Origin: Dictyostelium discoideum | Taxonomy: Eukaryota | Reading direction: 5' to 3' | NCBI GenBank assembly: GCA_000004695.1 | Contig: CM000151.3 | Coordinates: forward strand, 3,872,001-3,936,000 | Length of the DNA: 64,000 nt | Shown here: positions 9,369 through 24,936 of the stretch, piece by piece | Numbering within the stretch: the stretch's first letter is position 1 | Layout of the letters: each line of letters starts with the position of its first letter | Notes under the pieces: model-generated | What the model was told of the DNA's origin: nothing | The model's database searches: none | What the model saw: the letters and a program-made list of their open reading frames with translations, nothing else | Made by a program: the position numbers and the translations under genes

Positions 9369-12593
<3,225 letters not shown>

Positions 12594-12678
12594 CTTTAAA
12601 AAAATAAATTAATAAATTAATAAATTAATAAATTAATAAATTAAAAATATATATATGTATGTATATATTTATATTTAA

Positions 12679-12958
12679 GTTTGAAATTAAATTTAATTGA
12701 TAACAAAGTTCATTTAATCTTTCTTGTGATAAAGTTGAAATTATATTTAATAAATCTGATTTTGATTCAACAAATGAAACATTTCTTAATGCAATCTCTT
12801 TAATTTCAGGGAAATTTTTAAATACTATTTTTTGTAATTCTTGAATATTCTGATAATGAATACCTGTTGCTTGATCTTTTGTTAATTCTTCTCCTGTAAA
12901 ATTATCAATATCAAAATTATAATAAACTTTTAATATTCCTAATAATCCTTCTAAAACT
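12679..12958 (-). CDS. Aquarius exon 3 (SVLEGLLGILKVYYNFDIDNFTGEELTKDQ...FPEIKEIALRNVSFVESKSDLLNIISTLSQERLNELCYQLNLISN); 3' boundary unresolved
   Basis: acceptor aaatAG at 12960-59; aligns residue-by-residue to human AQR [22 protein letters not shown]...[45 protein letters not shown]; no canonical GT donor on this strand between 12601 and 12700. Confidence 0.6.
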
Positions 12959-13053
12959 CTATTTTATAAATAAAATAAAAATAAAAATTAAAATTAAAAA
13001 TTAAAAATTAATATTTAATTATTATATAAAAATAAAAAATAACCAATACATAC

Positions 13054-13315
13054 GACTTTGATTTATCATCATTTGATTTTAAAAATTCAGATTGAGATGT
13101 TTTTAAAATAAAATGAAAATCATCAAATAAAGCGAAAAAGAATCTTCTTGTTGTAATTTGAGTCATTAAATCAATCATAAACTCTAAAAATCTTTCACAA
13201 TAATTTAATGATTCTTTAAATTGTGTAAAATTTGATGATTTCAATCTTTCTAAATTATTTAAACTTTCAATAAATTGTTTCATTAAATCTAATAAAAAAT
13301 TTGAATATTTAATTT
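13054..13315 (-). CDS. Aquarius exon 2 (EIKYSNFLLDLMKQFIESLNNLERL...NYCERFLEFMIDLMTQITTRRFF..LFDDFHFIL...)
   Basis: acceptor ttttAG at 13317-16; donor TC|GTATGT at 13053; matches human AQR [36 protein letters not shown]. Confidence 0.75.
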
Positions 13316-13386
13316 CTAAAATAAAAAAAAAATAAAAAAAGTTAATATTTTTTGTTAAAAAAATATAAATAAATAAAGATAAATAC

Positions 13387-14140
13387 CAATTGAATTTGAA
13401 TTATTATTTGATAATTTTTCAATTTTCTTTTTAAATAATCTTAATTTCTTTTCTAATGGTTCTGATAATGATTGAGATTCTTGTTGAAATCTTCCAGATG
13501 ATAAATGTAACCAAATTGGATAAGAAACAATCTTTAAACATTCATTTCTAACCAAGACATCTTCAACATTTTGAAAAGCGTTAATGAAAAACTTTATGAA
13601 ATTACATTTCTCTATATCTGTCAATTCTGATAAATCAATTTGTAATAAACTTTCAAATAAATTTTTAAAACTTGATGATGGTGATGATTCTTCTTGTTCA
13701 CTATTATCATCAGATGATGATGATGATTTTGAATGAAATGTTTGGAATGAGTTTAAACCTTCTTTTGATTTTTCATTTACCATCATTAGAATTGACATTA
13801 TATGATATTTATTGGTTGATGTAGTTTTATTGAAATTTGGCCATAAATAATTCTCGAGGTAATGTGATAATTCTAATAATTGAACTCTTTGATCTGATTT
13901 TAACATTTCATCTTTGTATATCTTTTCAACTAAATTACTATCAAATGTTTTGGTATTAACTTCTTTTAACCACTGTTGTTTACTTAATTTGGTAATTTCA
14001 TCACTTAAAACTTCTGAAAGTGTTAATTTATTACTACTAACACTATTATTACTATTATTATCTAATTTTTGTTTTTTTCTATTGTCATCATTTTCTTCAT
14101 TATCTGTACCATGCTTATTGGATTTATTATTCCCAACCAT
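13387..14140 (-). CDS. Aquarius exon 1 (N-terminus)
   Basis: ATG 14140; LTLSEV..ITKL...W, EKIYKDEMLKS, LLELSHYLENYLWPNF, KYHIMSILMMVNEKS match the AQR N-terminal domain; donor G|GTATTT at 13386. Confidence 0.75.
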
Positions 14141-14218
14141 CTTTTATGAATGTGTAATATAATTAAATGATCTTTCAATTGTTGAAATTTTTCATTTTTT
14201 GAAAATTTTCAAAATCAA

Positions 14219-14261
<43 letters not shown>

Positions 14262-14560
14262 TTTTATTTTTACTTTATTTTTGTCACGATTATTTTGGAA
14301 ACTTTATAAAAATCTCAAAAAAAAAAAAATAAAAATAACTTAAATCAATCATTTATATTTCAAAAAAAAATATATGAAAGTAAAAAATAAAAAAAAAAGA
14401 AAATATTAAATAAATAAATGGAATGGTTTAAAATGATAAAAGATTGTTTTCAAAAAAAAAAAAAATAAAAAAAAAAAAAAAAACAATTTTGTAATCTCAA
14501 ATAATCATTAATATTATATTTATTTATTTATTTTTTTTTTTTTTTGTTTTTAATAATTTG

Positions 14561-14670
14561 TTTTTTTTTTATTTGTTTAATTTCTTTCTTTTTTAAGAAT
14601 AAATTTTTATCTTTTTTTTTTTTTTTTATTTGTTTAATTTCTTTCTCTTTTTTTTAAGAACAAATTTTAA

Positions 14671-14680
<10 letters not shown>
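14561..14680. repeat. ~60-bp tandem direct duplication in the vatD upstream region
   Basis: tttatttgtttaatttctttc(t)ttttttaagaa(t/c)aaatttt.atctttttt occurs twice in tandem. Confidence 0.8.
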
Positions 14681-14709
<29 letters not shown>

Positions 14710-14748
14710 TAAAACAATGTCTGGAAAATAGATTTTGGTTTAATTAAA

Positions 14749-14784
<36 letters not shown>

Positions 14785-14871
14785 TGTTCTGGGCAAACAC
14801 AAAACCAAAAAGTTTATGATTTTTTCTATTTTTTTATTTTTTTTTTCCACTGTGTTTTAGCCTGGTCATAC

Positions 14872-14902
<31 letters not shown>

Positions 14903-15022
14903 AAAATTTAATTTTTATTTTTATTTTTTTTTTTTTTTTCTAATTTTTTTATTTATATTTATATATATATTTTATCTTTTTATTTATTCTTTATCGAATA
15001 TCATAATTAAAAGAATAAAACA

Positions 15023-15063
15023 ATGTCTGGAAAAAATAGATTAAATATTTTCCCAACTAGAAT
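15023..15063 (+). CDS. vatD: V-type ATPase subunit D, exon 1 (MSGKNRLNIFPTRM)
   Basis: matches V-ATPase D N-terminus MSGKDRIEIFPSRM; donor AT|GTATGG at 15064. Confidence 0.8.
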
Positions 15064-15162
15064 GTATGGTTATAGATATTTTTAATAATAATAATAAAAA
15101 AAGAATGCTATAGTTTTAGCTTTTTCACTTCACACCAACCAACCAATCAATCAATCAATCGG

Positions 15163-15194
<32 letters not shown>

Positions 15195-15289
15195 CTTATA
15201 AACAATTATGAATGGTTATATTAATCTTTTTTTTTTTTATTTTTTTAATTAATAATAATAATAAAAAATAATAATAAAAATATATATAG

Positions 15290-15710
15290 GGCATTAACAG
15301 TGATGAAAACCAAATTAAAGGGTGCTGTCACTGGTCATTCACTTTTAAAAAAGAAATCAGATGCTCTTACAATTCGTTTCAGAAGAATTTTAGCAAACAT
15401 TGTTGAAAACAAACAATTAATGGGTACAACAATGAGAGATGCATCATTCTCTCTTGCTGCTGCTAAATATGCTGCAGGTGAATTCTCAAACTCTGTAATT
15501 GAAAACGTTTCAAATCCAACCATCGCCGTCAAAATGACCACTGAAAATGTTGCTGGTGTTCATTTACCAACTTTTGAGAAAATCTCTGAAGGTGTCGTTA
15601 GCAATTCACAAGAACTTACTGGTCTTTCAAAAGGTGGTCAACAAATTAATAAATCTCGTGAATCACACATTAAAGCTGTCGAAGCTTTAATTGCTCTCGC
15701 TTCTTTACAA
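15290..15710 (+). CDS. vatD: V-ATPase subunit D exon 2
   Basis: acceptor tatAG at 15288-89; ALTVMKTKLKGAVTGHSLLKKKSDALTIRFRRIL...NVAGVHLPTF...ELTGL.KGG...AVEALIALASLQ matches subunit D throughout; donor CAA|GTATGT at 15711. Confidence 0.9.
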
Positions 15711-15729
15711 GTATGTCCATTTTAATAAT

Positions 15730-15830
<101 letters not shown>

Positions 15831-15874
15831 TATTATAATATTAACTTTTTATATTTTTAAAAATAATTTTTTAG

Positions 15875-16186
15875 ACTGCTTTCATTACATTGGATGAAGT
15901 TATTAAAATTACAAATAGACGTGTTAATGCAATTGAATACGTAGTTAAACCAAAACTTGAAAATACCATCAGTTATATTATTACAGAGTTGGATGAAAGT
16001 GAAAGAGAAGAGTTTTACAGATTGAAGAAAGTTCAAGGTAAAAAGAAGAAAGATTTGAAAGCAAAAGAAGCACAAAAAGAAGAAAACTCTGCAAATAAAA
16101 CAATCATGGAACCAGCCTCTGTTCATAAAGTTAGAAGTCTCATCGATGATGAACCAGAAGATGCTGAATTATTATATGAAGATTAA
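15875..16186 (+). CDS. vatD: V-ATPase subunit D exon 3 ([52 protein letters not shown]...)
   Basis: acceptor ttttAG at 15873-74; conserved [19 protein letters not shown]....T..YI..ELDE.EREEF.RLKK; stop TAA at 16184-86; intron 2 contains an (ATA)n repeat. Confidence 0.9.
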
Positions 16187-16366
16187 ATTTATTTAAAAAA
16201 AATAATAAAATAAAATAATAAAATAAAAATAAAAATAAATAAATTATAAATAAAAATATCGCATGTAATAAACTCATACAAAAGAAAAAGAAAAAAAAAA
16301 AAAAAAGAGAATTTCTGTTCTATTTACAAATTTTTTTTTTTTTATTTTACTTTTTGATTGATAATT

Positions 16367-16678
16367 TCATATATTATTTTCAAAAATACCATTTGGTTGT
16401 TGTTGTTGTTGTTGTTGATTTTGGTGGTTTTGTTGTTGTTGATGATGATTTGTATTTTCACAGTTAAATTCGTTAAAATCAGAAATAATACCTAATAATC
16501 TACCAGTTTGTAATTGTTTTTGTTCAGCTACACCTAATGCTAAAGCCCAATCTTCAAGTTTTTGTGTATGTTGTTTTAATTCTTCTTTTGAATATTTTGA
16601 TAGTTCGTTGAATTTAATTTTAAAACTATCATCCACTAATGGATCTAAAAACTCCACTAATTGCTTTACTCTATCATC
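16367..16678 (-). CDS. Small hypothetical protein, main exon (DDRVKQLVEFLDPLVDDSFKIKFNELSKYSKEELKQHTQKLEDWALALGVAEQKQLQTGRLLGII... with Q/H-rich tail)
   Basis: ORF 16367..16657 extended in frame to acceptor attAG at 16680-79; no family recognised. Confidence 0.5.
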   Translation of the reverse strand, partial: DDRVKQLVEFLDPLVDDSFKIKFNELSKYSKEELKQHTQKLEDWALALGVAEQKQLQTGRLLGIISDFNEFNCENTNHHQQQQNHQNQQQQQQQPNGIFENNI

Positions 16679-17249: not shown

Positions 17250-17950
17250 TTAAAATTGACCAGTTTTAATTTTTGGAGACATTGGTTTTTCATTCAACCA
17301 ATCACTTCTTTTTTCAAATTTGGTAGTTTTTCCATCACTATCTTTTTTGATCATAATTTCTTCTTTTTTGATTAATTTTGGAGAGTTGAGACCAGTTGTT
17401 TGAGTCATTTGAGTAGTGGTTTGAGTGAATTCAGAAGCCATTTTAGCACCCTTTGAAATGGATAGGATTGGTGCTGGCATTGGTTTAACATTGAGTACAC
17501 AACTATCGGATTTTTGTAAGATAATTTCAGGAGTACCTTTGAATTCAGAGATTCTAACGATTGGTTCACTTCTAAAGAGTTTAATTAATGGTTCTTGTTG
17601 AGAGACATTAATATTTGGTGGAGTTGCAGCTGCGAATGAAACCATTGGTTTTGAGGATTGAATTTGAACTTCTGGTTTTTGTTGATTAATGATAACTGAT
17701 GCTTTTGGTTGGTTTACACTAACCATTGGTTCTCTTTGAATAAATTCAACTCTTGGTGCCATTTGATTCACATCAATGATTGGTGCATGTTGATCCAAAA
17801 AGATTCTTGGTGCTGGTTGTTGAATTTCAACTTGTGCTGCTGGTACTGTAACTTCAGCTCTTAATGATTTTTCAACAACATCCAAATCTGTTGCATTCTC
17901 TTTAATGATAATTTCTGGTGGAACTTCATAGACATTAATATTGTCCTTAC
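17250..17950 (-). CDS. Repeat-protein paralogue A, exon 2 (GKDNINVYEVPPEIIIKENATDLDVVEKSLRAEVTVPAAQVEIQQPAPRI...; tandem PxVxVxQ-type repeats)
   Basis: acceptor ataAG at 17952-51 restores frame (G+GT); ORF 17250..17885 plus 5' extension; about 12-residue repeats xP.V.V.Q..P. Confidence 0.6.
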
Positions 17951-17965
17951 CTTATTTTTTAAAAA

Positions 17966-17997
<32 letters not shown>

Positions 17998-18067
17998 AAA
18001 AATATTTTAGTTTAAAATTATTTTTAAATAAAAAATATTTAAATATTAAATTATAATAATTATTTAC

Positions 18068-18260
18068 CTTCATCAACTTTAATTTGAGTTTGTTGTTTTT
18101 CAACTAATACTCTTTGTCTTGGTTGTTCTAATTTAATGACACCATCATCATAATTGTTAACCCAAGTTTGTTGTTTAACAATTTTAGTTGTGGTTTTTTC
18201 ATTATCAGAGAAACGTGGAGTACCTTTTTGGCAAGTGGTTTTAATTTGATTTAAATCCAT
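18068..18260 (-). CDS. Repeat-protein paralogue A, exon 1 (MDLNQIKTTCQKGTPRFSDNEK...VLVEKQQTQIKVDE-)
   Basis: ORF 18060..18260; donor G|GTAAAT at 18067; divergently oriented to paralogue B. Confidence 0.6.
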
Positions 18261-18264
18261 TGTT

Positions 18265-18295
<31 letters not shown>

Positions 18296-19025
18296 AGAAA
18301 TTTATTGTAAATAATTGTTTATTTTTATTATTTATTAGATTGTTATTTGAGTGAATGAATTAAAATTTTTTTTTTTTTTTGTTTAAAAAGAAAATCAAAA
18401 ACATAGTAAAATTTAACTTTGAAAAAAAATGTGTTTTTTTTTTTTTAGATCTCTAATAACCACCATATTAATTATAGATTGATATTTTATTTTGGATTTT
18501 TTTTTTTTTTTAATTAAAATTAAAATTTAATTTCCTATTTTAGATATTAGAAAAAATTAAAAAAAATAAAAAAATAAAAATAAAATTAAATTTTTTTTTT
18601 TTTTTTTTTTTTTACTAAAATAGATTTTTACTTTTATTTTATTTTTTTTATTTTTTTATTTTTTTTTACTAAAATATTTTTAATTGGGACAATAGATATT
18701 TTATTATGTTTTTTTTTTTTTCTTTTATTTTTGTTTTTTTATTATTAATAAAAAAAAAAAAAAAATAAATAAAAATAAAAAAAAATTTAAAAATAAATAA
18801 ATTAAATTAAAATGATAATATCGATCTTTTATCAAAACATTTAAGAGATTTAAGTAAAAAAAAAAAAAAAAAAAAAAAGGTTTGTTTTTATAGTTTATAA
18901 AAAAATTTTTTTTTTTTATTTTTCCAAGTTTCATTTTAATAAATATTTTCTAAATAAATATATAAATATAAATATATAAATTTTTTAAATAAAAAAAATA
19001 TAATTCATAGTAATTTTTAATCTAT

Positions 19026-19056
<31 letters not shown>

Positions 19057-19057
<1 letters not shown>

Positions 19058-19647
19058 TGGTTGAAAAAGTTTATTCAAGTTCACCAAAGCAACAAGCTGA
19101 TGAAAGAGTTTATTCAACAACAGGAAATGCTGGAACCTATAGGGATAGCTACGATATTTCAGTTAAACAACAACCAGCTCATTTAACATTTGATCAAACA
19201 CCAATGTATTTAGAATTGAATGAAATCGCTAAACATATTTCAGTGGAGAGAGCTCAACCAACCGTTAACATTGGTCGTGCCGCCGATTTAATTCAAGTTA
19301 AACAAGAACCAGTTCAAGTCCAAGTTCAACAAAATGCAACCGATGTAAATGTTACCACTGAACAACAAGTTATCGAAGTTCAACAAGTTGCTCCAGAAGT
19401 TGAAATTGAACAATATATGCCAAAATTCTATCTTAAAATGCCACCATTCCGTGTTCATTTGGAAATGGACGGTGCTCCTGAAATCATTATGGAACCATAT
19501 CAACCTTCCATTAAAGTTAAACAATCTGATCCAATCGTTCGTGTAACTAAACCTGATCCAAGAGTTTTAGTTACTGAAAATCCACCAAAAATTGATATCA
19601 TTCAAAATGCTTCTTCTGTTGATGTTATTCCTTCAACTAAAGCTTCT
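19057..19647 (+). CDS. Repeat-protein paralogue B, exon 1 (PxVxVxQ repeats: QPTVNIG.., EPVQVQVQQ, VIEVQQVAPEVEIEQ, SDPIVRVTKPDPRVLVTENPPKIDIIQ)
   Basis: ATG 19057; donor TCT|GTAAGT at 19648. Confidence 0.7.
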
Positions 19648-19739
19648 GTAAGTTTTAATTATTTTAAAAAATCTTATATATATATATTAATAATTATACT
19701 AACTTTTTTTTTTTTTTTTTTTTTTTTTAAAATTAATAG

Positions 19740-20538
19740 ATCCAAGTTAAAGAAGATAAACCAAAGATTACTATTCAAGAATATAATCCAACAATGACAT
19801 TTAGAGAAGGTGAAACTAAATTTGATTATAAATCATTCCAACCAGAAGTTCAATGGGAGAATCCAACACCAAAGGTTACAGTTTCACAAGGTGAACCAAC
19901 AATTAGAGTTTCACAAGATACACCATCAATCGGACTTAAGAATAGAGAACCATCAGTTACTATCAATACTAAAGCACCAAAGATCGATGTTCATCATCAT
20001 CCATTATCAGTATCTGTCGTTGAGCCAGCTACAACTGTTCATTTCGGTAATCCAAATAGCTATGCTGCCGCTGCCGCTCATCAACCACATGAACATAATT
20101 GGGAAGAAATTAAAGCAATTAAAGTTGACCAACCATTAGAGAAAATCGGTCATTTCTATTCCCCATCTGAAAAGACCCTAACTTCATTCAATTTATGGAA
20201 AAACATATTAACCTCAACTGAAAAAGTTATTGCAAACAAAGGTGTTGGTAGAAATTTCTTTACCCTTATCGACACTCATGAAAATAAAATCTGTGAATGT
20301 TTCAAAGAGGATTTAGGTCTCCACAGATTCAATCTCAACATTCGTTCTTCAACTGGTGACCTTTTATTCAAAGGTGAATCTCAAGGTCGTACACTTAAAC
20401 TCTTTGATACTCAAGGTACTTTATTCTGTACCGTTGAATGTAGTAAAGATCAAGTAGAATGTTTCAATGATAAAGGTCAATTATGTTTCAATTTATTACC
20501 AAATTCTATGAAATGGTTCTTTGATATTAGAAACAAAG
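19740..20538 (+). CDS. Paralogue B exon 2 (IQVKEDKPKITIQEYNPTMTFREGE...EPTIRVSQDTPSIGLKNREPSVTINTKAPKIDVHHHP..., then a Cys-containing beta-rich C-terminal domain, possibly LURP-one/tubby-like)
   Basis: acceptor aatAG at 19738-39; ORF 19794..20543; donor G|GTTAGT at 20539. Confidence 0.65.
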
Positions 20539-20672
20539 GTTAGTAGTATTATATTAAATTTTAATTTATAATAATAATGTTTTATATATAATTCTCTCTC
20601 TAATACATTATTCTTTTTTTTTTTCTTTTTCTTTTTTTTTAATTGTAATAAAAACTAATACTACCAATTTAG

Positions 20673-20812
20673 CTCAATCAACAATTGGAGCACTTAACAA
20701 GAATGGAAGTAAAACTGGAGGATATATGATGGATTTCCCAAGAGATTTAATTCCAAATGATAAGATGTTATTAATTTCATCTATGTTCTTAATTGATGAT
20801 TGTTTCGAATAG
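20673..20812 (+). CDS. Paralogue B putative exon 3 (AQSTIGALNKNGSKTGGYMMDFPRDLIPNDKMLLISSMFLIDDCFE*)
   Basis: acceptor atttAG at 20671-72; 46-codon open frame ending TAG at 20810-12; phase-compatible with the exon 2 donor. Confidence 0.4.
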
Positions 20813-20977: not shown

Positions 20978-22884
20978 TTATATATTTTCAGTTATGTTTT
21001 GTTGAATTTGTTGATCAATTGGTTCCTGTTGAACAAGATCTTGATCTTTTGGAGGTTGGTCTAAGTTTGATTCTTGCTCTATTGCTAGTTCTTGTGATTG
21101 TTGTTCAATTGCCATTGAATCTTGTTGTTGAGTTGGTTGTTGTGGTTGTTCAATTGACATTAATTCTTGTTCTTGTTGTTGTTGTTGTTGTTCTTGTTGT
21201 TGTTGTTGTTGTTGTTGTTCTTGTTGTTGTGGTTGTTGTTGTGGTTGTGGTTGTGATTGTGATGGAACAATAGAATGAGTTTGTGGTAAAGAAGGAATAG
21301 TGGATAATTGTTGTTGAGTTGGTTTAATTAATTTTTTAACAATTTCTTGATAATATACCCTACCTTGTTTTGAAGTATAATTTGTAGAAACTTTTTGAAC
21401 AACATTTTGAACATAAGACTTTGAAAGGAATAAACCTAAATTATGAATGATAGTCTCAACATCTTCTTCTCTAAGGTAGTTTACTCTATTCAAATCAAAG
21501 AAATGGAAAGACTCTAAAACCTTTGCTGATTCATCGACTTGTGTGCCAATGGTGGTTGATGTTGAAGAAGAAGCATTACTAGTTACAGAAGATCTTTGAT
21601 TCTCTGCTGAATTTCTGTTACTATCATCTTTATTAGATAGATTTGGAGAATTAATTGATGATGATGATGTATTACTAGTATTAGTATTATTACTACTATT
21701 ATCATTATTGTTATAATTATTACTCTCAATATTATATTCATTATTATTATCATTTTGATTATTATTTTCATTTTGATTATTATTATTATTATCATTATTA
21801 TTTATTTCATTATTATTATTATTATTATTATTAATATTATTAGTATTATTATTTAATCCCTCATTTAACTCACCTTCAATTTGAACTGGCTCATTGTTAG
21901 TGTTAGTTAGTGTATTGTCCCCTATAATCTCACCATTTTCAGTATTATCAGTGGAAGATTCTCCATCCAATTTAACCTTTTTATCAGTAACTCCACAAAC
22001 ATCTTGTTGTGGTGATTTCTCTGTACTCTTTCTATTTCCATCCAAAGAAGAACTATCAGTTGGTTGATTAGTACCATTGTTGTTATTATTATTATTATTA
22101 TTATTATTAGTATTAGTATTATTTGAAGTATTGATTTCACTATTTTCACCCCTAAAAGCATGATTATCATCTCTCTTTCTCTTTAAGGTTGTATCAGTAA
22201 TTTCATCAGATTCTTGGCTTGTTGGTCTATAATTTACAATTGAAGTTAAAATATTTGTACCCATATCTCTACAAAGCATTAAATAGAATAACTCTGAAAA
22301 TAAAGATGCTTCAAATGTACCCTCATGTGTATCGGATTCATCATAATCTAATAAACCATCAAGAGATAACATCATTGCCTTATATCTATTACCTTCTGAT
22401 GATGGTGTTATGACATTATAAAACTTTGAAGCCTTTGGTAAATGTAATGATCCATGAGTTGTTGTTGCTGTTGCTGCTGTTGTTGTTGGTACTGCTGCTG
22501 CTGGTTTAGTTGTATTTGAAGTTGTTGATGATTTTGGTGGTTGATTTTGTTCAGTATTACTAGAAGTTTCATCATTATCAAAATCTTTTGAAACATGATC
22601 TTTTGGAGCTTGATCTTCCTCCTCTTCTTCTTCAGTAGTTTTAGTAGTAGCGGTAGTAACTCCAACAGGAGCTGATGGTGTTGTTTCAGAAACTGTTGGA
22701 ACTTTTAATAAGGAATCAACATCCATTGGTTGAATATCAGTGATATCTGGTACATATATAACGGTAATCTCTTGGTAATATGATTGTTCTTCAGTTGGTG
22801 GTCTATAATAATGAACTTCCATAAATTTATACCATTTTTTGCATCCACTTAAATCAATTTGAGTATATTCTTTAGTTGTACGAC
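20978..22884 (-). CDS. DBC1/CCAR-family protein (cell-cycle and apoptosis regulator homologue), exon 2: inactive Nudix-like region, N/S-rich spacer, EF-hand-like C-terminal domain
   Basis: [30 protein letters not shown]....ITVIYVPDI aligns to human DBC1 IRCAQAQTGIDLSGCTKWWRFAEFQYLQPGP...VVVYLPDV; [30 protein letters not shown] aligns to DBC1 FVFFDANWCGYLHRRDLERILLTLGIRLS; acceptor tatAG at about 22886-85. Confidence 0.75.
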
Positions 22885-22924
22885 TATATTTTTATTAATA
22901 AAATTAAATAATATTAGTAAATTT

Positions 22925-22976
<52 letters not shown>

Positions 22977-22993
22977 CAAATAAGCACACATAC

Positions 22994-24936
22994 ATTGCAG
23001 TATTAATTAAAGTTTGAGGATCATTAACATCTTCACCATCTAAATCTGGTAACCAAGTACCACCAATACAAGAGATATCTTTATCTTCTTTAGAAACTAA
23101 AAATTTAATTTTCTTTGTAATTGAAGGATCTTCAATATTTGAGTAGAAAGAATATAACATTACTTTTGAATTATATTTGATATGAGTTGTTGATTTATTA
23201 AGTTGTTGTTGTTGTTGTTGCTGTTGCTGTTGTTTACTGAAGGAAGTTTTATGGATATCAACTTTTTCAAAACCAAAATCCTTAATATCAATTAAGAATG
23301 GTATATTTTGATTTACCTCGATACGTTGTTGTGGCTCTTCACCACCAGTTGAATCGATCCAACTTGAAACTAAACGAGTGAAATCTGGTGAAATTTGTAA
23401 ACGACTGAATATATTTTTCAATGATGAATAGTCATAGTTCTCTTGAGTGAATTGATGTGATGGTATCTTTGTTGAATATTTCTTATCACCAGACGAGGTT
23501 GATGATGAAGATGATGATTCTGTTGATTTTCTACTTTCCTTTTCATAATCTTTTTTAGATGATGATGTTGATGAAGATGATGTTGATGAAGTTGATGAGG
23601 ATGAATATGAACCTTTATCACGATATTTATTAGTGAAATCACCTCCACTTCTATTACCACCACCACCGCCACCACCGCTATAATCTCTACTACCACCACC
23701 ACTATAGCCATCTTTACTTTTATAAGATTTCGATCTATTTATACTATTATTATTGTTATTATTGCTATTCATATTATTACTACCTTTACCCCATGATGAT
23801 CCACTACCTCTAGGGAAATCTTTGATATTAATTCCCATAACAGTGTTGCCACTATTATTTTGATTATTATTTTGATTATTATTTTGGTTATTGTAGTTTT
23901 GGTTTGAACTATTTCTATTATCATTTCCCATATTATTGTTATTCATTGTAGTAGTATTATTATTCATATTATTCATATTATTCATATTATTCATTCCCAT
24001 GTTATTCATACCACTGCCCATATTCATATTGTTATTCATGTTATTATTATTATTATTCATATTATTGTTACTCATACCACCCATATTATTCATATTATTA
24101 TTATTCATGTTACTATTCATGTTACTATTCATGTTACTATTCATGCTACTATTCATGTTATTATTCATATTATTATTATTCATATTATTATTCATATTAT
24201 TATTATTCATATTATTTCCCATTGGTCTATTACCACCTCCACTTACAACTCCACCTGAAGATTGTTGATTTGGTGATGTCCTATTAACCAATGTATTATT
24301 ATTATTATTATTGCTATTGTTATTGATATTATTATTATTGTTGTTGTTATTTTGTTGGTTCATTCTTGGGTCATATTGGTTATAATTATAGTTTTGATAT
24401 TTATTGAAATTTTGATTACCACCACCACTGCTACCACCACCCATATTATTCATATTGTTATTATTATTCATATTATTATTCATGTTATTATTGATATTAT
24501 TATTATTCATATTATTATTATTATTCATATTATTATTCATATTCATAGTGTTATTGAAATTTTGGTTTCCCATATTTCCACCACCACCACCACCCATATT
24601 ATTATTCATATTATTCATATTATTCATATTGTTCATATTGTTCATATTGTTCATATTATTATTATTATTATTCATACCCATATTACCACCCATATTATTA
24701 TTATTCATACCCATATTGCCCATGCCACCCCCCATATTATTCATATTATTACTATTATTATTATTATTATTATTATAGCCTTGGTTGCTATTATAACCTT
24801 GGTTACCACCACCACCACCACCAAATCTTTGTTGGTTCATGTTGTTGTTATTATTATTATTATTATTATAAGGATTATATCCTCCTTGTGGTTGTTGAGG
24901 TTGTTGATATTGGTTTGTTTGTTGATTCCAATCCAT
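22994..24936 (-). CDS. DBC1/CCAR-family protein exon 1: very long N/Q/G-rich prion-like N-terminus, then the conserved block ...[37 protein letters not shown]
   Basis: ATG 24936; [33 protein letters not shown] aligns to DBC1 KFLLGRKEEEAVLVGGEWSPSLDGLDPQADPQVLVRTA; donor AT|GTATGT at about 22993; the splice recreates the conserved TAIR. Confidence 0.75.

Follow-up and report, generated by a model that had tools for sequence, protein, structure and literature searches.

Two divergently transcribed genes of Dictyostelium discoideum, DDB_G0274335 (hereafter gene A) and DDB_G0274337 (gene B), lie head to head within a 64-kb window of chromosome 2; the window is the whole stretch of DNA that we analysed, and positions are counted from its first letter. 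Both products are recorded in databases as hypothetical proteins, and that of B bears the automatic UniRef name 'Tubby C-terminal domain-containing protein'. We find that A and B are distant paralogues by sequence comparison, that both are built around arrays of a nine-residue repeat, that they are co-expressed specifically in spores and that their head-to-head arrangement is conserved among Dictyostelia. Our preferred reading of these results is a Dictyostelia-specific, co-regulated pair of probably cytosolic beta-repeat proteins of the mature spore, which would act as a beta-ribbon scaffold associated with membrane or lipid. We put it forward tentatively, as a reading to which we would give somewhat less than an even chance.

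The spliced model of gene A (minus strand) contains one intron and encodes a product of 297 residues that equals the annotated DDB_G0274335 protein (Q86IY2) exactly. Gene B (plus strand) contains two introns and encodes 509 residues with 100% identity to the annotated DDB_G0274337 protein (Q86IY3). The extents and strands that a sequence-only reading of this DNA had given for the two genes (17250-18260 and 19057-20812) are therefore correct. That reading had also placed an intron in the C-terminal domain of B, which we recover; the intron of A and the first intron of B went unmentioned in it. The exon breaks of B recur in D. purpureum (tblastn). The features of the locus are as follows.

17250-17950, minus strand: gene A exon 2, residues 65 (part) to 297, with the stop codon at 17250-17252
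17439-18143, minus strand: region coding for the A array of 9-mers, ~22 units (residues ~40-235), split by the intron
17951-18067, minus strand: gene A intron, GT...AG, the sole in-frame GT-AG model, which reproduces the database protein
18068-18260, minus strand: gene A exon 1 in the splice model, with the ATG at 18260
18261-19056, no strand assigned: intergenic spacer between the two start codons, 796 bp, 8.5% GC, candidate bidirectional late-spore promoter
18534-18543, no strand assigned: CCTATTTTAG, one mismatch to the CArG box (CC[A/T]6GG), conserved in D. dimigraforme
19057-19647, plus strand: gene B exon 1, residues 1-197
19234-20048, plus strand: region coding for the B array of 9-mers, ~27 units (residues 60-300), split by intron 1
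19648-19739, plus strand: gene B intron 1, within the repeat region
19740-20538, plus strand: gene B exon 2, residues 198-463
20169-20809, plus strand: region coding for the putative C-terminal scramblase/LURP-one/tubby-like domain of B, residues ~341-509, split by intron 2
20539-20672, plus strand: gene B intron 2, within the C-terminal domain
20673-20812, plus strand: gene B exon 3, stop codon included

Spore-specific co-expression and conserved head-to-head order

Expression values were taken from published RNA sequencing (RNA-seq) data (Kin et al., 2018, supplementary file 5; PMC6198379) and are given below in transcripts per million (TPM).

0-16 h: A at most 4.5, B at most 2.6
20 h: A 7.0, B 10.8
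24 h: A 1772, B 1022
Prespore: A 0, B 0.37
Prestalk: A 0.17, B 0.05
Cup: A 6.9, B 3.0
Spore: A 6190, B 2793
Stalk: A 110, B 48
Vegetative: A 0.10, B 0.06

The two profiles are near-identical (Pearson r=0.995 for log2 values), and in spore, stalk and cup alike the A:B ratio lies at 2.2-2.3. As a control, DDB_G0274327 and DDB_G0274345, the nearest genes listed, reach only r=0.08-0.59 with the pair. Co-expression of A and B, which the sequence-only reading had proposed to check in developmental RNA-seq, is thus confirmed as a 24-h, spore-only pattern. Both genes belong to spore cluster 1, described as 'almost exclusively expressed at 24 h' (PMC6198379). In an independent study, the DDB_G0274335 promoter was cloned as a 'fruiting body' reporter and gave red fluorescent protein (RFP) only after 22-24 h.

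A further gene, DDB_G0274317, has a nearby gene number and was not located in the window. It has the same 24-h, spore-only profile, with 112 TPM at 20 h, 1596 TPM at 24 h and 951 TPM in spores. It too belongs to spore cluster 1, and its correlation with A and B (r=0.94-0.96) might indicate that late spore genes are clustered locally. Within the 64-kb window itself, no further paralogue of A or B was detectable.

In D. purpureum, D. dimigraforme, Tieghemostelium lacteum and C. fasciculata, which cover taxon groups 1, 3 and 4, the two genes likewise lie head to head, across spacers of 851 bp, 758 bp, ~430 bp and ~860 bp, respectively. In D. discoideum the spacer is the AT-rich, ~0.8-kb interval that had been described from the sequence, and a search of it for transfer RNAs (tRNAs) and Rfam RNAs found none. 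Because the genes are co-expressed, their arrangement is conserved and the A reporter is active late, shared regulation of A and B is well supported. The pair resembles known co-regulated divergent pairs in its head-to-head order, its short spacer (~430-860 bp), its near-identical profiles at a constant ratio and the conservation of the arrangement across Dictyostelia. It differs from known bidirectional promoters in that promoter activity is known in the A direction only and no shared cis-element was found. Accordingly, of the earlier proposal of a bidirectional promoter, the co-expression, the conserved order and the late activity towards A stand, and a single shared element is a hypothesis.

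Conserved blocks appear in the spacer only against the close relative D. dimigraforme; they lie at 18376-18428, 18447-18500, 18534-18543, 18810-18850, 18880-18897 and 18921-18940. The D. discoideum spacer has no k-mer of 7-10 bases with at least three G/C in common with that of D. purpureum or T. lacteum. A possible candidate for a MADS-box (SrfA) site is the CArG-like sequence listed above. The T. lacteum spacer holds an exact CArG box, CCAATTTTGG, within the palindrome TTCCAATTTTGGAA, and the D. purpureum spacer has no match. Because the box is exact only in T. lacteum, carries one mismatch in D. discoideum and D. dimigraforme and is absent from D. purpureum, control by SrfA is only a lead. 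The D. discoideum spacer also contains an imperfect direct repeat (18592-18741; unit of 54-72 bp, 77-78% matches, ~2 copies), a segment largely missing from the D. dimigraforme spacer.

A nine-residue repeat in both proteins

The sequence-only reading had taken A and B for paralogues with degenerate repeats of 10-12 residues. The paralogy is upheld: the repeat regions of A and B are homologous (26% identity, E=2e-10, blastp), and a profile of the B repeats scores the A family at 34-45 bits and reversed sequences at 0-7 bits. The peptides that had been quoted as examples are also all found in the A and B translations. The length of the unit, however, has to be revised. We measured periodicity as the autocorrelation of proline and of hydrophobic residues, with z computed against 500 shuffles. 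At lag 9, z is 10.3 in B and 5.3 in A for hydrophobic residues and 5.9 in B and 5.1 in A for proline, and the hydrophobic signal of B continues at lags 18 and 27 (z=8.3 and 8.1). Autocorrelation peaks in A and B occur at 9, 18 and 27 only, with none at lags 10-12 (z = -1.0 to -2.2 at lag 12), and the C-terminal domain of B shows no lag-9 periodicity. The unit is therefore nine residues long, the peaks at 18 and 27 being its harmonics. In the DNA itself the repeats are ancient; the only detectable 27-nt duplication (19876-19930) agrees with the nine-residue unit.

Across eight dictyostelid proteins the unit has the consensus [A/E/P/Q]-P-x-[I/V]-x-[V/I/L]-x-Q-x. The pattern with which units were collected imposed the proline and the two hydrophobic positions; the glutamine (37%) and the first position are independent observations. 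The array is the best-conserved portion of B: over 241 columns with zero indels it is 82% identical to that of D. purpureum and 52% to that of Synstelium polycarpum, compared with 76% and 42%, respectively, for the C-terminal domain. Such high identity without indels argues for a defined structure and against drifting low-complexity sequence.

After the repeats, all A orthologues carry KFEKR-x-[D/E]-W-L-[N/E]-E (A residues ~277-287, window ~17283-17315), and in B orthologues a Trp (NWEE or EWVQ) is conserved at the equivalent site. This shared Trp position suggests that A resembles B without the putative C-terminal barrel that is discussed below.

The repeats had further been likened to those of alveolins, articulins and other cortical cytoskeleton proteins of protists. 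A 12-residue period is common to alveolins, articulins and plateins (PMC4303705), articulins have more than three VPV modules in the repeat domain, and the medial domain of epiplastins shows frequent acid-base dyads separated by short V/I-rich strings (PMC6212826). What A and B have in common with epiplastins is a V/I/P-rich, A/G-poor repeat domain, predicted as beta/coil, between non-repetitive ends: the repeats contain 20-22% V+I, 7-9% A+G and ~10% Pro, which agrees with the bulk composition of epiplastins (high V+I, low A+G, predicted beta/coil). The agreement ends there. The period is 9 and not 12, hmmscan against Pfam at E<=10 finds no IMCp (PF12314) match in A or B, none of the 97 nearest non-dictyostelid relatives carries IMCp, and VPV occurs 0 times in both proteins. 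We counted 5 acid-base dyads in A (over 196 residues) and 5 in B (over 266 residues), a density of 1.9-2.6 per 100 residues; in the protist proteins they are dense. On these grounds we reject membership in the alveolin/articulin family. An IMCp-based survey also found no candidates in Amoebozoa (PMC6212826), and the hosts of alveolins, articulins and plateins build epiplasts, which Dictyostelium is not known to do. An epiplastin-type membrane skeleton forming a cortical cytoskeleton in this amoebozoan would suit the composition of the repeats, and the candidate lipid-binding barrel of B could attach such a skeleton to the membrane; we nevertheless regard it as quite improbable, since, besides the sequence differences, neither gene is active in amoebae or prespore cells and expression is confined to terminal spores. 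A functional analogy of A and B to a membrane skeleton is possible.

With an alignment of 82 dictyostelid and bacterial sequences, AlphaFold2 (AF2) predicts strands as the only secondary structure of the repeats. These are regular, 5-6 residues long and ~9 residues apart, with a predicted local distance difference test (pLDDT) score mostly of 70-80 over ~100 residues and a predicted template modelling (pTM) score of 0.40. Each nine-residue unit is thus modelled as one short beta-strand and a proline-containing turn. Because P, V/I, V/I and Q occupy alternate positions, they would lie on one face of the strand and make the structure amphipathic, and we infer that the array folds either as a long beta-ribbon or as a solenoid of unusual type. 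We found no PDB neighbour of the repeat model, and full-length A and B have no match among PDB sequences at E<=10.

Neither protein contains a signal peptide or transmembrane segment, the highest 19-residue Kyte-Doolittle window being below 0.9, and the mean hydropathy of the first 25 residues on the same scale is -1.29 for A and -0.98 for B. Because both proteins lack a signal peptide and a hydrophobic segment, they are probably cytosolic. Pfam and PDB sequence searches found no enzyme-like domain in A or B.

The C-terminal domain of B and bacterial relatives of the repeat

Past the array, B carries a domain that had been described from the sequence as Cys-containing, beta-rich, split by an intron and possibly tubby/LURP-one-like. 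An AF2 run with three sequences models residues 341-509, at low confidence, as a helix, 11 strands and a second, terminal helix, and the intron split is as stated. Cys content is not a conserved property of the domain, in which C431 is the sole Cys invariant across three species. The last 55-60 residues match Scramblase (PF03803) in four of four orthologous domains (best E-value 5.5e-6); on B itself this match scores 16-19 bits against a cut-off of 25.4 and covers only the C-terminal third of the profile. Across the tubby superfamily (PF03803, LURP-one/At5g01750 and Tubby), all scores of the B domain lie below the curated thresholds. The tubby/LURP-one guess is therefore favoured by the match in every orthologue and disfavoured by the subthreshold scores and a negative PDB profile search, and it is plausible that the C-terminus of B resembles, weakly but consistently, a scramblase/LURP-one/tubby beta-barrel. 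No other known member of the tubby superfamily is fused to a 9-mer beta-repeat array, as B is.

With HMMER we searched 1.84 billion representative proteins for matches to a profile built from three B orthologues and obtained 361 proteins at E<=1e-3. Only three matches were full-length, those of D. purpureum, Synstelium polycarpum and Cavenderia fasciculata; the B orthologue of T. lacteum was found separately at its genomic locus (tblastn). Because the full-length matches are dictyostelid only, the combination of repeat array and putative barrel appears to be confined to Dictyostelia. Nearly all other top matches are bacterial proteins of 300-580 residues, in which a signal peptide and a C-terminal domain accompany a long series of QPxVxVxQ 9-mers. 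A domain scan of the 97 best non-dictyostelid matches found PRC-barrel in 83, DUF6470 in 69 and OmpA in 4. Animal matches to the B profile (Solemya, Lytechinus, Branchiostoma and Argonauta; E=1e-10 to 1e-32) were set aside as coincidental periodic matches; the Solemya sequence, the only one of the four inspected, is an unrelated protein with a near-perfect DPGPTVTLR nine-residue tandem repeat.

The bacterial unit, [E/Q]-P-[E/Q]-V-T-V-x-Q-[P/A], and the dictyostelid unit, [A/E]-P-x-[I/V]-x-[V/I/L]-x-Q-x, are the same nine-residue motif. A hidden Markov model (HMM) of the B repeats scores the bacterial proteins at 35-129 bits and collapses on reversal, with medians of 58.9 bits for real, 7.2 for reversed and -1.1 for shuffled sequences. 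Because the score is lost on reversal and shuffling, the similarity between the bacterial and dictyostelid proteins lies in the ordered motif. Single bacterial members score 40-55 bits against DUF6470 (PF20074); B reaches 26.0 bits (E=8.4e-6) and A 18 bits against the Pfam gathering threshold of 28.9 bits, and precomputed database annotation assigns PF20074 to B orthologues. In period, position composition and directionality, A and B carry arrays of x-P-x-V-x-V-x-Q-x 9-mers of the DUF6470 type, and they are a new eukaryotic variant of this known but uncharacterised repeat class.

Long uninterrupted 9-mer arrays are common to A and B and to the DUF6470, PRC-barrel and OmpA proteins. The bacterial proteins are exported and combine a signal peptide with a PRC-barrel or OmpA domain, whereas A and B contain introns, lack a signal peptide and are spore-specific, with B joined to a tubby-like barrel. 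DUF6470 is a bacterial protein linked to flagellar gene sets (bioRxiv 10.64898/2026.06.11.731707); A and B differ in their eukaryotic host, their introns and their housekeeping neighbours. The likeness of the repeats may reflect common descent, including an old horizontal transfer, or convergence. That the intron positions of B are shared with D. purpureum argues against a recent transfer.

Housekeeping genes unrelated to the pair flank it on both sides, with aquarius, V-ATPase subunit D and LIN52 on the left. D. purpureum has these three genes, followed by A and B, in the same order (9369-16657 of the window; L001:1-3879 in D. purpureum), and the V-ATPase D open reading frame of D. discoideum is on the plus strand. 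To the right of B follows a large DBC1/LAIKA-domain gene (20978-24936, minus strand) with very long poly-Q and poly-N tracts, convergent with the 3' end of B such that the two stop codons are only ~165 bp apart. In C. fasciculata, the 1103-residue model DFA_03158 (L005:5001-8722) has the look of a fused model: up to about L005:6565 it is similar to B, and beyond that point it carries FNIP repeats like the two downstream genes.

Possible roles of the pair in the spore

On the reading that we prefer, the AT-rich spacer would switch on A and B together at the end of development, in maturing spores. The array would form a long amphipathic beta-ribbon or another elongated beta-repeat rod, whose hydrophobic face may pair with a second ribbon (A with B, or each with itself) or rest on a lipid surface. 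The scramblase/LURP-one/tubby-like barrel of B could tether this assembly to membrane lipid, and the two proteins would then be an abundant component that gives structure or stability to the dormant, or germinating, spore. A bolder form of the idea, to which we give a slim chance, would make the unit a new kind of amphipathic beta-ribbon, a module that Dictyostelia acquired from bacteria long ago and fused with a tubby-like lipid-binding barrel; A and B would then build a non-actin membrane skeleton or lipid coat of the spore, convergent with the epiplasts of alveolates and euglenids and of independent origin.

Several observations weigh against the scaffold. In the three-sequence AF2 run, the alignment of which is too shallow for repeats, the arrays came out unstructured (pLDDT <35). 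For the C-terminal domain, the scores behind the assignment are subthreshold and the model is of low confidence (pLDDT 50-69), and the profile of the domain returned nothing relevant from PDB sequences, only chance HisF matches. We found no sequence motif common to all spacers, and the published promoter reporter covers the A direction only. Our literature search found no localisation, knockout or biochemical data on A or B; it returned one paper naming DDB_G0274335 and none naming DDB_G0274337, neither gene is mentioned in the supplements of PMC4931340 and PMC9117722, and the literature on PRC-barrel and stress response gave no usable lead. Finally, the proteins may act at germination and not in dormancy.

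The two proteins could be disordered cytosolic protectants of the desiccated dormant spore, of the late embryogenesis abundant (LEA) or hydrophilin kind, without a defined fold or assembly. Terminal, spore-only and very abundant expression would fit such a role, as would the short internal repeats, an overall hydrophilic composition (grand average of hydropathy, GRAVY, -0.56 for A and -0.51 for B) and the lack of structure in the first AF2 run. Disorder is harder to reconcile with position-specific, indel-free conservation that exceeds that of the globular domain, with the regular strands at pLDDT 70-80 that a deeper alignment yields, with an alternating hydrophobic pattern typical of beta-strands and with a folded barrel domain in B. 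The usual definition of hydrophilins requires more than 6% Gly with high hydrophilicity, and Gly makes up only 2.7% of A and 4.1% of B. We consider this explanation unlikely.

Timing admits another account, in which the messages are stored: mRNAs would build up in late spores and the proteins would act during swelling and emergence of the amoeba. Because spore cluster 1 also holds the germination genes celA, celB, gerA-C and iptA (PMC6198379), a role at germination is possible. Against specific germination factors stands the absence of an enzyme-like domain, noted above, and we hold this account to be improbable; the present data are compatible both with germination factors and with a role in dormancy. 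Spore timing would likewise suit secreted proteins of the spore coat or matrix, and the bacterial proteins with the same repeat, which have signal peptides and PRC-barrel or OmpA domains, offer an analogy for export. Prespore cells are where classical coat proteins are synthesised, for storage in prespore vesicles; A and B have no prespore expression, and the hydropathy of their first 25 residues leaves no N-terminal hydrophobic segment, so that we judge a coat function highly improbable.

Gene annotation, public expression tables and the use of the A promoter as a reporter were already known. What appears to be new is that the repeat has a nine-residue period and is linked to the DUF6470/PRC-barrel class, that the architecture of repeat plus barrel is restricted to Dictyostelia and that the divergent order is deeply conserved. 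The negative result for alveolins appears to be new as well; it does away with a tempting but mistaken placement of alveolin/articulin proteins in Amoebozoa. A and B are highly expressed in mature spores and conserved in all Dictyostelia sampled, and they have had no assigned function. The link to DUF6470/PRC-barrel proteins poses the question of a common fold for both groups, and Dictyostelium is genetically tractable for answering it. Furthermore, the pair provides a compact and evolutionarily stable divergent late-spore promoter, which could reveal the poorly defined cis-elements of terminal spore expression.

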